DNA of 64,000 bases, from assembly GCF_003790525.1 (NCBI RefSeq), contig NZ_CP033635.1, one strand, 5' to 3'. Shown here piece after piece: positions 58,401 to 64,000 of the stretch. A program made the position numbers. This stretch comes from Escherichia coli (GTDB lineage Bacteria > Pseudomonadota > Gammaproteobacteria > Enterobacterales > Enterobacteriaceae). Each line of letters begins with the position of its first letter. The first letter of the stretch is position 1.

Positions 58401-61400
58401 CATTGCCTGATGCGACGCTAACGCGTCTTATCAGGCCTACAAATCGCTCATTCCGCAAGGCGCTCGCACCGCTTCCGGCGACCAACGTCATGCTTCGTCT
58501 GGCTGCCAGTCTTCCGTATACCAGATATGCAACAGCGCATAAGAACGCCAGGGCTTCCAGCGCTCGGCATAACGGCGGATTTGCGCCGGTGTCATTCCCG
58601 GAAATCGCTGTTTAATCAGATAATCATCCGGCAGGAAAACATCTTTCGCCTGCCAGCCACGCAAAGCAAAATAATTCGCCGTCCAGCTCCCGATACCCGG
58701 AAAAGTTTGCAGCGTTTTCATCGCCTGCTCCACATCGCCCGGTATTGTCATTGGTAAGGTGCCCTCCAGCGCCGCATTTGCCAGATGAATCAGCGCCTCT
58801 GCCCGTTTCAACGGCATACCTAACGCTTTTAATGCCTGCGGGTCTGCTGCTGCCAGCCGCTGAGGCGTGGGGAAGCAGATATACTCCGGAAAATCATCCA
58901 GCCGTTCGCCATAAAGCTGTACCACTTTGGCAGTCAATTTTGCCGCCATCGCCACGCTCACCAGTTGGCCTAAAATCGCCCGCACGCCCTGCTCAAAAGC
59001 ATCAACACAGCCGGGTAAACGCAATCCGGGCCGCGCCGCGCCTAACTTGCCCAACGCACCGTTAACAATCTGCGGGTTACATTGCAGATCAAGCAGGCGG
59101 CTCATTTTCGCCAGACACTCAGCGGCAACAGGTTCTAAACCTGCACTTAAATTTATGTGCAGAGTATGACGGGCTATATCCGGAATAGCAGTCACCACGC
59201 CGCGATATTCGCCCACCGCCAGACTACGGGCATAATAACTGTCCGCGACCGTTTCCACACCACTCACCGCACGGGCGGCGAGAAATCCCAACATCCACGA
59301 CCAGTCATACGGCGGCTGCCAGTTCAGGGTATACATCGCATCTCCTTATTCATCCGCTTGCAGCATAAACGTTATTCAGGCGTTACGCTTTGCTTTCATA
59401 TTCCGGTTGTCGCGACGGCAACATTTCGCTAAAGTCACGCCCCTTCTTCACCGGCATGGGGATTATTTCGTGTTTATTGGTTTTGATTACGGTACAGCAA
59501 ACTGTTCAGTGGCGGTCATGCGTGACGGTAAACCGCACTTGCTAAAAATGGAAAACGACAGCACGCTGCTGCCTTCAATGCTTTGCGCGCCAACGCGTGA
59601 AGCGGTAAGCGAATGGCTGTACCGCCATCATGACGTTCCGGCAGACGACGATGAAACGCAGGCGCTGTTACGACGGGCGATTCGTTATAACCGCGAAGAA
59701 GATATCGATGTTACGGCGAAAAGCGTGCAGTTCGGTCTTTCCTCACTGGCACAGTACATTGATGATCCAGAAGAAGTGTGGTTTGTGAAATCACCAAAAT
59801 CGTTCCTCGGTGCCAGCGGCTTAAAACCGCAGCAGGTAGCGCTGTTTGAGGATCTGGTCTGCGCAATGATGTTGCACATTCGCCAACAGGCGCAGGCTCA
59901 ACTGCCGGAGGCAATTACTCAGGCAGTGATTGGTCGCCCGATCAACTTCCAGGGGCTTGGCGGCGATGAAGCAAACGCCCAGGCGCAAGGGATTCTGGAA
60001 CGCGCGGCGAAGCGTGCCGGATTCAGGGACGTGGTATTCCAGTACGAGCCGGTCGCGGCTGGGCTGGATTACGAAGCCACCTTGCAGGAAGAAAAACGGG
60101 TGCTGGTGGTGGATATCGGCGGTGGTACGACTGACTGTTCATTGCTGCTGATGGGGCCGCAGTGGCGTTCGCGTCTCGATCGTGAAGCCAGCCTGCTGGG
60201 TCACAGTGGTTGCCGTATTGGCGGTAACGATCTGGACATCGCACTGGCGTTTAAAAACCTGATGCCGTTACTGGGCATGGGTGGCGAAACCGAAAAAGGC
60301 ATCGCCCTGCCGATTCTGCCGTGGTGGAATGCGGTTGCCATCAACGACGTACCTGCGCAGAGTGATTTCTACAGTAGTGCCAACGGTCGTCTGCTTAACG
60401 ATCTGGTACGCGATGCCCGCGAACCGGAAAAAGTGGCCCTGCTACAGAAAGTCTGGCGTCAGCGTTTAAGCTATCGCCTGGTGCGTAGCGCAGAAGAGAG
60501 CAAAATTGCTCTTTCCAGCACTGCGGAAACCCGCGCCTCACTGCCGTTTATTAGCGATGAACTGGCTACGCTGATTAGCCAGCAAGGGCTGGAAAGCGCC
60601 CTCAGCCAGCCACTGGCGCGGATTCTGGAACAGGTGCAACTGGCCCTGGATAACGCCCAGGAAAAACCGGACGTTATATACCTGACCGGCGGTAGCGCCC
60701 GTTCGCCGCTGATTAAAAAAGCGCTGGCAGAACAGTTGCCGGGCATTCCGATTGCAGGCGGCGATGACTTTGGCTCCGTCACCGCCGGGCTGGCACGCTG
60801 GGCGGAAGTGGTGTTTCGTTAATTGAAAAATGGCTCAGCAGCGGCTTAAATCTGCCTGCGCCTGAGCCAGTTTTTCTGCCGCCTGACGTAACGGTTCCAT
60901 CAACGGCATGGTCCGTGCTGGCGCATGAAGGCGGAATCGCTGCAACTCTGTCGCGCCGACAGTCAACGTCGATTCCAGCCGATGTCGTTTGGCGGCCATT
61001 TTAGTCATTACCGCTTGTCTGTCTGCAGGCGTTACCGCTTCGTTCGGCCTGAACACAAAACGGCGTTCACAGCTCGCTTTCCAGTCGATAACCGCCTGGG
61101 TCAGATGGTCGCCAAACCCTTTCACTTGCTTAACGCCACGACGGGTAACATCTGCTGCTGTTTCAATACCAAAGGACCGTAACGCCGCTTTACGCGCAGG
61201 GCCAACACCGGGAATAGAGGCAACATCAATAAAAAATCTCTCCAGAAACTTCTGTTTCTGCCGTTCCCTTGCAGTGTCATGAAGTGCTGCCAGAGCGCGT
61301 TTCTCTTCTTCCGGTAACCCGAGAATTTTGTCCTTCATTTTTTCGAGCATCGCCCGTTTGGCGATAAAACCTTCCAGCCCGCCCAACTGTTGGATCTGGT

Positions 61401-64000
61401 TGACTAAATGGTCATAGTCCATTTTCGCGCGATTAAATACCTCACGGCGTTGCTGAACTTCTGCTTTGTACGCTTTGCTTGTCAGACTGCCAATAATCCA
61501 GATAGCCGCCAGCACAGGAACCAAAATAATATAACGCGGTTCTGCCTGAAGGCCGCAAAGCAACAGCGATAACGCTGACAGTGCGATCTCAATCAGAATG
61601 ATGTATTCGCGCCGTAACAGGCCTAAAGGAAGCGGCCTGCCAGTCGGTTGGAAATGATCGGGTAATGGCAGTTGCAATGCTGGCGGCGCTACTGACGCCA
61701 TCACCATCGCCCAGACTTTCGCCAGCACAAAATCACCGCTGGTGGTAATGACCTCTTCGCCGAGATCAATAAAATAGATAACGCCTTGATTATCCAGCGC
61801 ACACCACGGGCAGTCAGTCAAATGAGCGGGGTAAACATGCATTGCTGAAACGGTACATTTCTTTAACTGTTGGCGTAGAGAGTCCAGTGCCGCTACCCAC
61901 GCTTTAGCCGTCGGACGCCCCGTTGCCACGCCACTTTCCGTGAATGCCTGCTGAAACATGGCTTCAACATCGCCCGGTAACATCGACAGCGGAATCGATC
62001 GTGGCGGCGGTTTTAAACCACGTCGCTGATTATCTGACGCGTAGGCATAACGGAAATGGGCAATATCCGTCTCCAGCGCATTACCCGCATCAGAGATAAG
62101 CGGCACACCAGAATAAGGATGCCGCCCACCAAACAAGACGTGAAAAATCAGCAACGCAAGGCCAAAATTATCGTGATTCGCGGTACGTTCAAAACCGACA
62201 AATGACGACAAGGTTTGTAGCTCTGGCGGCGTAAAATGCGACACGCCGACTTCGCATAAATGCAGTGTGCCATTGGCGTTAATCTGAAAGGAGTCACTAT
62301 CGATCAACACCACTTTGCTGTCGCGACCTACCATAAAGCTGTTCTGGTTTACGTCCCCCACGACGTGCCCGTGCTCGTGAACCGTAGCAAAAGATGAAGC
62401 AATATTGCGCGCAACATAGAGTAGAAAATCCCACGCACAATGAGGGTAACTCTGGCGACGATGTGCCGGGCTATAGATCATATGAATCGGTTCTTTACCA
62501 GAAACTTTTGGCATCATAAAACCGATAACTTTTCCGCCTCGTCCACCGTGAAGCGTTGCCTGCGGCCAGGCGACATAATTCAACAACTGCGCGTCAGCTG
62601 TCGCAGCCATAAAGGCAAGTTTGTCCTGTTTTAAGGCGGGTGGCGGCGTGTGATAAATCTTGGCGACGCTATCGACAAACTCCTCGATATCATAAACCGC
62701 GCCTTCACCACCTTTGCCCAGTTCACGGCCAAGAGTGGTCAATTCACCTGTCGATGTAAATACTTTTATATTTGTTTTCATAATATTTCGCGGGTAGTTA
62801 TATTATATTTCAATGAATAATAACAACTAACCATTAAAATTATTTCTATATGGGGAAAACCCACTCAAGAATAAAAATGATAATGCAATTTTATCAGGAT
62901 ACAATTCAATTTCGGCCTGATAATGATTAACTTCCACAGGTTTTTGCTAACTTTGACTACAAAGGGATTCTGGAGAAAAAATGAAAAAGATATTACTTAT
63001 GTTGAGTCTGCTATTTTTTACTACCGCGGGCTTTAGTGAAGTTTCGGATACGTTAGTGACGGGAGGTTATGATAAACAAGCGATGTCTGACGCGATTAAA
63101 CATGCGCGGAAAGAAACCGATAAATTCATCGAGGTTATGAATAAAAAAGATGCCGATACTTTCGCAGTCAAAGCCCCGATAACCGATCACGGAAGAACCG
63201 AGCATTTCTGGCTTACGGATGTCACTTATTCTAACGGCATGTTTATTGGCGTAATCAGCAATGACCCTGGTATTGTTACAAACGTAGAATATGGCCAGGA
63301 GTGGAAAATCAAGAAAGAAGATATTTCAGACTGGATGTATACGCGCGGGGATAAAATTTACGGCGGTTATACCATTGATCCTTTATTGGTCACCTATCCA
63401 AAAGAAGAAGCCGACGAGCTAAGAGCAAAATTAGTTCGCTAATCAGCCGTTATATTTATTGTTTAAACTGGCGGTTGAATTGTTGTCTTCAACCGCCATG
63501 AGAAACTCACTCTGCCCACAGCGCCAGTGCCAACGTTTTATCATCATCCGTACGCTCGTTTACCGCCGGGCTGGACAAAAACTGCTTTAACAATTCAGGT
63601 AATAAATCGAGTTGTTCCTGCGTTGCTGCCGCCAGTCCATTGAAAAACGGGGTAAAGAAAGGCACATGAGGAGAATTATCCAGCATATTTAACGCCAGTC
63701 GCTGGATACCATCCGTAAATGCTGCAACTTTGTGCGCACGCCCAGTGCTGGTGAAAGTTTCCAGTCTGGAAACGGCATCTTCGTCGGTAATGAAGTGCGT
63801 CATGTTGGCATATTCACCCGCCATCGGCGTGAGAGGCAATTGCAGACCGTGACCCAAATCTACCACCACGCCGCCATCGCCAATCTGCATAATCAAGGTG
63901 CCGTCAGGCGATGAAATCAGTCCCAGAAATGTGCAGGCAAAATCGCGAACCGCTAATTCTTTGGCTTCCGCCTCGGCAAAAAGTCGTTGACGAATGGTCA

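Follow-up and report, generated by a model that had tools for sequence, protein, structure and literature searches.

The yegL-pphC-yegI genes of Escherichia coli as a chromosomal TerY-P-type triad split by the yegJ cassette

The triads of the TerY-P class consist of a TerY-like protein that has a domain of the von Willebrand factor type A kind (vWA), a PP2C phosphatase and a Ser/Thr kinase bearing at its C-terminus either a zinc ribbon or an oligonucleotide/oligosaccharide-binding (OB) fold. They were first found in tellurite-resistance (ter) gene clusters, according to the passages on this class in PMC11090510 and PMC4978471, which cite Anantharaman, Iyer & Aravind 2012 for its definition. 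The same passages, together with those in PMC7699616, state that TerY-P triads were later found in CoCoNuT systems and that a stand-alone variant defends against T7-like phages. Here, we examine 5 genes of E. coli, namely yegD, yegI, yegJ, pphC (also called yegK) and yegL, the first 4 of which are located at the end of a 64,000-nucleotide stretch of DNA (RefSeq assembly GCF_003790525.1, contig NZ_CP033635.1), hereafter referred to as the window. We find that yegL, pphC and yegI constitute a member of the TerY-P class and are the conserved unit of this locus, and that yegD and yegJ are unrelated neighbors. In the explanation that we favor overall, and consider likely, the chromosomal triad works as a phosphorylation switch.

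The system as such is already known, the TerY-P class having been described and a related variant being a validated anti-phage system, and our results refine existing knowledge rather than report a discovery. YegI and PphC are the only known Hanks-type kinase and PP2C pair in E. coli K-12, and the pair is placed here in the TerY-P class. The additions are small: the frequency and extent of the yegJ cassette, by which the operon is split in K-12-type strains, the status of yegD as a backbone gene, a homology test against the triad of a ter plasmid, and serines of YegL that are candidates for phospho-acceptors. A previous sequence-only reading of the window had listed yegD, yegI, yegJ and yegK at positions 59470-64000 and had guessed that yegL would be located just past the window edge. 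The gene list and the coordinates match the open reading frames (ORFs) and the annotation, and yegL was found where expected (Table 1).

The proteins encoded by the triad

All 3 proteins were found to be homologous to those of the ter-plasmid triad, and the E. coli trio is therefore assigned to the TerY-P class. In tblastn searches, YegL matched 3 TerY paralogues per ter plasmid, with matches in 2331 plasmid records. In the Klebsiella pneumoniae plasmid pNDM1_085031, in which the order of the cluster is vWA-TerD-vWA-vWA/TerY-C-PP2C-kinase, TerY1 was 33% identical to YegL (E = 1e-28) and the PP2C protein was matched by PphC (E = 6e-7). A profile of the YegI family aligned with the kinase of the same plasmid with an hhalign probability of 99.1% (E = 4.8e-19), over 323 columns that extended through the zinc ribbon. 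The yegL-pphC-yegI genes are thus a TerY-P member with a kinase that combines a zinc ribbon with a membrane hairpin, a coiled coil and a tandem helix-hairpin-helix domain, (HhH)2.

Searches with the single sequence missed the kinase identity of YegI, which was settled by profile searches with the family and by a predicted structure. When searched against Pfam, E. coli YegI gave no Pkinase match at E ≤ 10 and matched only HHH_5, while other libraries yielded weak generic kinase matches (PD-T4-6, 1e-4; LanL, 3.6e-6) and a single-sequence search of the PDB yielded kinase matches below the threshold only (NleH1, E = 0.1). In contrast, of 60 full-length relatives, 51 matched Pkinase at E ≤ 1e-3, the best match having a value of 7.8e-13, and the family profile retrieved 216 kinases of solved structure (E ≤ 0.01), among them TTK (2.9e-7), RSK2 (residues 12 to 233) and PknE. 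The AlphaFold (AF2) model of YegI had a pLDDT (predicted local distance difference test) score of 93.2 and a predicted template modeling (pTM) score of 0.83, and its comparison with the PDB by Foldseek gave at least 1920 kinase matches, with target template modeling (TM) scores of 0.70 to 0.73 for BRAF and PknB, and with Aurora also superposed (about 0.7). YegI is thus a divergent eukaryotic-type (Hanks) Ser/Thr kinase. The lack of a kinase-family profile match, which the sequence-only reading had named as evidence that would speak against its proposal, was observed literally, for Pfam Pkinase and the E. coli protein, but not in substance, given the matches of the relatives, the solved kinases and the kinase fold.

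The glycine-rich loop LGKGGEGAVYD comprises residues 21 to 31 and the catalytic-loop segment HVVGDVNQNS residues 139 to 148. Residues G24, E26, K41, D143, N145, D161, D163 and S164 were invariant among 60 sequences of the YegI family, all of them being retained in the E. coli protein, as were P186 and E187 of a PPE motif, the latter at the position of the APE glutamate. The departures of E. coli YegI from the canon are VGD for HRD, DSD for DFG, and serine for the catalytic-loop asparagine. In published work, autophosphorylation was abolished by the substitutions K39D and D141N in REL606 numbering, the kinase preferred Mn2+ and was sensitive to staurosporine, autophosphorylation occurred on serines in and near the DSD loop with second-order kinetics, and the DSD loop could not be replaced by DFG (10.1101/819920). 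The family is large, with 9765 clusters at 50% identity (E ≤ 1e-3), and the full architecture of 645 amino acids (aa) was seen in most of the top matches. The nearest YegI protein outside Escherichia was 63% identical, and those of E. marmotae and other Escherichia species were 90% to 97% identical. Numerous shortened YegI entries were also noted in the databases, some of which may be explained by fragments at contig ends.

Immediately after the kinase domain follows the zinc-ribbon-like CHCC motif, which all of the 60 family members have and which aligned with a CPYC motif in the TerY-P kinase of the ter plasmid. A hydrophobic segment was located at the position of the membrane hairpin in 57 of 60 relatives, and the passages on topology in 10.1101/819920 report, from PhoA-LacZ fusions, that YegI spans the inner membrane twice with both termini in the cytoplasm. 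The hairpin is followed by a coiled coil or long helices, the (HhH)2 domain and a C-terminal helix of about 60 residues (aa 585 to 647). The parts of YegI that had been proposed from the sequence, a glycine-rich loop, a catalytic-loop-like segment and a nucleic-acid-binding-like tail, were all recovered, the tail corresponding to (HhH)2, but 2 hydrophobic segments were found in the place of the one transmembrane segment. Many relatives share the kinase and zinc ribbon of YegI (residues 1 to about 385) but have other, longer C-termini, with lengths of up to 1158 aa, and some of these variants gave weak matches to SMC/LmuB/JetC-like coiled-coil models. The sensor or effector end of YegI-type kinases appears to be modular.

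PphC is a protein of 253 aa that matched Pfam PP2C_2 over residues 11 to 220 (E = 3.4e-50), and its DGAGS, GDG, TDG and DDK motifs were conserved in at least 90% of 80 relatives. It has been reported to retain 6 of 8 canonical residues, to be active on p-nitrophenyl phosphate and casein and to dephosphorylate YegI, while the allele of K-12 has low activity (10.1101/303594). Thus, the proposal that YegK is a PP2C-type phosphatase is supported both by the domain match and by published activity. YegI in turn phosphorylates PphC, the activity of which is not measurably altered (10.1101/819920, 10.1101/303594). With the biochemistry of both enzymes published and the trio falling in a described class, the set is considerably better characterized than the sequence-only reading had taken it to be. 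A 602-aa E. coli database entry that combines PF13672 (PP2C_2) with 74% of YegI was also observed; it resembles a pphC-yegI fusion ORF, such as would arise from a frameshift where the 2 genes overlap (ATGA).

YegL matched Pfam VWA (E = 1.6e-9) and has a complete metal ion-dependent adhesion site (MIDAS), consisting of D27-x-S29-x-S31, T94 and D131, which was conserved in at least 90% of 78 relatives. YegL is thus a vWA protein of the TerY type whose metal site, the MIDAS, is complete, although TerY is not mentioned among the names that the source annotation gives for it. Conserved to the same extent across phyla in these relatives were an N-terminal motif ahead of the MIDAS, FAxNPEPRCPC, and a cluster of serines at the C-terminus, WLSxSxxxVSxSxPG (S193, S195, S200 and S202), which is a candidate phospho-acceptor of the kinase. 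Overproduction of YegL and of YegI each raises endogenous DNA damage ("DNA-damage-up"; 10.1101/354589).

Conservation of the triad and its unrelated neighbors

To delimit the conserved unit, we scanned one genome per species and identified YegI relatives in at least 559 species, which span the Proteobacteria, Actinobacteria, Firmicutes, Acidobacteria, Chlorobi, Cyanobacteria, Synergistetes and Planctomycetes as well as the archaeon Methanoregula. A total of 80 triad loci were examined, 79 of which were from outside E. coli, and colinearity was counted in the 73 loci whose upstream DNA covered 1.6 kb or more. The order vWA-PP2C-kinase was observed in 72 of these 73 loci, in at least 9 phyla and in Methanoregula. 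No fourth conserved gene was identified when the flanking ORFs of 82 loci were clustered; the only gene to recur was TetR-like and limited to closely related Competibacteraceae loci. In Piscinibacter, Chromobacterium and Klebsiella, the YegI orthologues, which are about 60% identical, were all encoded in an operon for a vWA protein of 219 aa, a PP2C of 253 aa and the kinase.

In the genomes of Salmonella and Citrobacter, the backbone asmA-dcd-udk-dgcE-alkA-yegD-ibs-mdtABC is present without the triad. Relative to these, the segment specific to E. coli is about 3.5 kb long and extends from the yegD stop codon to the sib/ibs repeats. In E. coli strains that lack yegJ, pphC and yegI overlap by 4 nucleotides (ATGA), as do yegL and pphC. 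The triad is a self-contained, horizontally mobile 3-gene module of about 3.5 kb that was inserted in the Escherichia lineage between yegD and the sib/ibs repeats.

The yegD gene belongs to the backbone, as Salmonella and Citrobacter keep alkA-yegD-ibs-mdtA without the triad, and since it is convergent with yegI, the 2 genes are not co-transcribed. It is an enterobacterial gene that has been inherited vertically. YegD matched the NCBIfam equivalog PRK11678 with 811 bits, while the matches to Pfam HSP70 were restricted to the nucleotide-binding part (model positions 2 to 205 and 249 to 349 of 599). It is an Hsp70/actin-like ATPase with no match to the substrate-binding domain, and its previous description as a DnaK paralogue is accurate as to the Hsp70-like part but not as to a full DnaK-type protein.

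The sequence-only reading had joined the Hsp70-like ATPase, the kinase, the phosphatase and a secreted protein with a domain of unknown function (DUF) into one clustered signaling module, with the vWA gene as a possible partner, and had proposed that co-inheritance be checked by phylogenetic profiling. Such a four- or five-gene eukaryotic-like unit, with YegD and the secreted DUF2314 protein YegJ as partners of the kinase, is very unlikely. The genes are adjacent in the window strain, overexpression of yegJ induces yegD (PMC13232886), and yegJ directly follows yegD in Superficieibacter, which suggests a yegD-yegJ link rather than a link to the kinase. However, a YegD-like gene was located beside the triad in 0 of the 79 loci from outside E. 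coli, the E. coli locus alone having one, and no YegJ-like ORF adjoined the triad in any of the 80 loci. Moreover, yegD occurs without the triad in Salmonella and Citrobacter, where its product is 88% to 91% identical, as against 63% for the nearest YegI outside Escherichia; about 65% of the E. coli genomes lack yegJ; and yegD and yegI are convergent. The module thus stands for the kinase, phosphatase and vWA genes, which are co-inherited, and not for yegD and yegJ. A functional unit of yegD, yegJ and the triad was rejected on comparative genomics.

The yegJ gene is an inserted gene and not a conserved partner of the triad. It is carried by an AT-rich cassette that was present in 1901 to 1933 of 5426 complete E. 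coli genomes (about 35%) in 3 bands of identity (≥99%, 95% to 99% and 90% to 95%), so that yegJ is not specific to K-12, as 2 papers have called it. A comparison with the allele of strain IHE3034 indicated that the cassette takes the place not only of the last 2 codons of pphC but also of the initial 18 of yegI, in which 11 residues differ and there is an indel of 2 codons. In the window allele it interrupts pphC-yegI; the cassette thereby splits the operon, removes the translational coupling of the 2 genes and gives yegI a promoter of its own. Shimada et al. reported RpoD promoters for yegI and yegJ and an H-NS mark in the spacer, the yegJ promoter being ATGATA-17-TACAAT at 62877-62905 (PMC3946193). 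A hairpin at the other end of the cassette, as judged from its predicted fold, is probably a terminator after pphC. In strain EM18-18-42 (NZ_CP063473.1), yegJ is split by an IS1 insertion.

YegJ matched Pfam DUF2314 (PF10077; E = 2.9e-25), and its N-terminus, MKKILLMLSLLFFTTAGFSE (window 62981-63050), resembles a Sec-type signal peptide; the protein, which the sequence-only reading had called secreted, may therefore indeed be so. A study from 2026 reports that YegJ binds the catalytic domain of RNase E, that its overproduction leads to a leaky envelope, and that moderate overexpression of yegJ strongly induces yegD (PMC13232886). That study takes YegJ to be a cytoplasmic partner of RNase E, and N-terminally tagged YegJ was undetected in it, which is what removal of the N-terminus by cleavage would lead one to expect. 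The nearest YegJ protein outside Escherichia, with 75% identity, was that of Superficieibacter electus, located in the same yegD-mdtA hotspot. There, yegJ is followed by genes for SUKH, Tli3, Tle3_C and Imm52, which are immunity and effector genes of the type VI secretion system type, and no triad is present. More distant relatives of yegJ adjoined neither yegD nor the triad. The layout in Superficieibacter and the induction of yegD by yegJ hint that yegD and yegJ are linked in a way that does not involve the kinase.

The disruption by the cassette bears on the view that the triad persists in E. coli as a relic, foreign DNA that was silenced and is intact but idle, and that it is decaying in the strains that carry yegJ. 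In line with this are the broken pphC-yegI coupling, the H-NS mark on the yegI-yegJ spacer (PMC3946193), the low activity of the K-12 PphC allele, the many shortened YegI entries (contig-end fragments may account for some of them), the drift of E. coli YegI from the family consensus to the point of missing Pfam Pkinase, and the fact that no condition of expression has been found. We nevertheless consider a relic highly improbable, because the 3 ORFs are intact, at least 80% of the 4.7-kb region is kept in 5374 records, both enzymes are active in vitro, E. coli YegI keeps every catalytic residue that is invariant in the family, and the identity of 90% to 97% across Escherichia, including E. marmotae, argues for selection.

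In the window strain, the region 59300-64000 was 100% identical to that of E. coli ETEC6 and other strains. The locus is flanked by dgcE and alkA upstream, and by the ibs/sib type I toxin repeats and mdtABC downstream of yegL. The stop codons of the convergent yegD and yegI genes are separated by 12 bp (60823-60834), and a consensus scan detected no terminator-like site between them. A scan of positions 58000-64000 against Rfam gave no match.

Table 1. Features of the yegD-yegL region. Positions refer to the window, which ends at 64000.
Feature	Position	Strand	Description
yegD	59470-60822	+	GTG start, 450 aa; annotation and ORF agree
yegI	60835-62781	-	648 aa, Ser/Thr kinase of the triad; ORF and annotation
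(HhH)2 DNA-binding-type domain of YegI	61057-61239	-	aa ~515-575
Membrane hairpin of YegI	61477-61605	-	2 hydrophobic helices, aa 393-411 and 417-435; hydropathy scan
Zinc-ribbon-like motif of YegI	61792-61869	-	C309-x5-H315-x8-C324-x2-C327 (aa 305-330), right after the kinase domain
Kinase domain of YegI	61882-62781	-	aa 1-300; VGD for HRD, DSD for DFG
yegJ cassette	62728-63515	.	GC content 0.37 (window 0.50); presence/absence polymorphism; yegJ, divergent promoter spacer and hairpin
Divergent yegI/yegJ promoter spacer	62782-62980	.	AT-rich; promoter-like sites on both strands
yegJ	62981-63442	+	153 aa, DUF2314; ORF and annotation
Hairpin between yegJ and pphC	63469-63498	.	11-bp stem; fold -20.1 kcal/mol, z -2.9
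pphC (yegK)	63507-64268	-	PP2C; cut by the window end, C-terminal 163 codons and stop inside (63507-64000)
yegL	64265-64924	-	vWA; 265 bp past the window edge; 4-nt overlap with pphC

Mobility and proposed function of the triad

The kinase gene was found on 83 plasmid records, 46 of which were scored as conjugative, including megaplasmids of Agrobacterium, Rhizobium and Pseudomonas. Nine of the 83 records were from E. coli, some of them chromosome-sized; the "plasmid" set of PLSDB includes several E. coli chromosomes of 4.8 to 4.9 Mb, which inflates the plasmid counts of chromosomal genes. Among 50,697 phage records, only 1 distant match to YegI was identified. Nearly identical counterparts of E. 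coli YegI, PphC and YegL exist among the PHROG families (phrog_37888, phrog_37072 and phrog_28389), which is probably an artefact of prophage boundaries in that library. Defense or toxin genes were located within 9 kb of the triad in 4 of 6 sampled contexts and included genes for type I restriction-modification, Mrr, GmrSD, AbiH, a KAP NTPase, BrxR, JetB and a Schlafen-like helicase.

As a phosphorylation switch, the triad might work in the following manner. PphC would hold the YegI kinase off until a trigger is sensed through the MIDAS of YegL, through the membrane-proximal nucleic-acid-binding parts of YegI, (HhH)2 and the zinc ribbon, or through both. YegI would then dimerize along its coiled coil and autoactivate, and active YegI would phosphorylate YegL, for which the C-terminal serine cluster is a candidate site, and/or other targets in the cell. 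The output would be on DNA or growth, which fits with the DNA damage raised by overproduced YegL and YegI (10.1101/354589), and, by analogy with other TerY-P triads, would most likely be directed against phage or invading DNA, or else against metal or DNA stress.

Several observations weigh against a switch of this kind. Of 5426 complete E. coli genomes, 5423 contained the region 59300-64000, and such a near-universal occurrence at a fixed position is unusual for a defense system. In addition, 2 of the 6 sampled contexts, both from other species, were ordinary housekeeping neighborhoods. The PADLOC models did not identify the triad as TerY-P, in that YegL alone matched one of the models of this class, that for TerY (E = 0.0095), while PphC gave no match. 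When the E-value limit was raised to 10 and 10 relatives with other C-termini were included, no TerY-P kinase or phosphatase model was matched, and the YegI family matched only the generic PD-T4-6 and MkoA models. A phenotype, substrate or trigger of the E. coli triad is not known from the literature, in which we also found no link between yegI and phage defense, and the groups that have published on these genes found no condition under which the triad is expressed (10.1101/819920, 10.1101/303594, PMC13232886). Finally, the part played by YegL, be it as sensor or as substrate, is one that we infer.

Some of these observations would agree with a domesticated housekeeping pair of the PknB/PstP kind that regulates normal physiology, such as stationary phase or the envelope. 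The fixed site in nearly all genomes, the housekeeping contexts of some orthologues and the lack of a match to the PADLOC TerY-P models point in this direction, as do the recurrent yegI mutations in the long-term evolution experiment and the weak stationary-phase expression that have been reported (10.1101/819920, 10.1101/303594). A housekeeping role is nonetheless unlikely in view of the patchy distribution across phyla and domains, the occurrence on conjugative plasmids, the defense neighbors in most of the sampled contexts, the homology to the ter-plasmid triad and the absence of the triad from the closest genera, Salmonella and Citrobacter. It also sits poorly with expression that was not detectable under standard conditions (10.1101/303594, PMC13232886).

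We therefore retain the TerY-P-type phosphorylation switch as the likely explanation. A bolder proposal, which we put forward tentatively and regard as rather doubtful, is that the E. coli triad, near-universal and normally silent, represents a distinct membrane-anchored TerY-P subtype that falls outside the current defense models. With (HhH)2 and the zinc ribbon placed at the inner membrane face, the kinase of such a subtype would sense the DNA of phages or conjugative plasmids as it enters the cell and act via YegL to cause DNA damage or growth arrest, and the yegJ cassette would uncouple the kinase from the phosphatase and shift the set-point of the switch.

Comparison with known systems

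Four groups of described systems resemble the triad. The pairs PknB/PstP and PrkC/PrpC share with YegI and PphC the kinase fold (TM-score of about 0.7 to PknB) and an autophosphorylation of the activation segment that is reversed by an adjacent PP2C (10.1101/303594). They differ in that YegI has no extracellular sensor domain, both of its termini being cytoplasmic, in the 3 departures of YegI from the canonical HRD, DFG and catalytic-loop asparagine residues, and in the obligatory vWA partner and the mobile, patchy distribution of the E. coli triad.

The triads of CoCoNuT systems (CnuB/C/H/E) likewise combine a vWA protein, a PP2C and a Ser/Thr kinase, the kinase domain of which is followed by a zinc ribbon. 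Here, the differences are that genes for CnuB/C/H/E were located neither beside the E. coli triad nor in the sampled loci, and that YegI has additional membrane and HhH parts.

The anti-phage TerY-P system of Gao et al. 2020 is also a stand-alone set of vWA, PP2C and a kinase with a C-terminal nucleic-acid-binding module, and it occurs in defense islands, as far as it is described in the relevant passages of PMC11090510 and PMC7699616. In these descriptions its kinase is fused to an OB fold, whereas in YegI its place is taken by a zinc ribbon together with a membrane hairpin and (HhH)2.

The TerY-P triad of the ter clusters has the same order of genes, for a TerY-type vWA protein, a PP2C and a Ser/Thr kinase, and in both cases a zinc ribbon follows the kinase domain. 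The E. coli triad, however, stands alone, without terZABCDE or TerD, and has one vWA gene rather than 3, and PphC is a protein of 253 aa compared with 587 aa for the PP2C of the ter plasmid. The ter-plasmid kinase of 499 aa matches the YegI profile only to residue 393, that is over the kinase domain and the zinc ribbon, and not over the C-terminal half of YegI.

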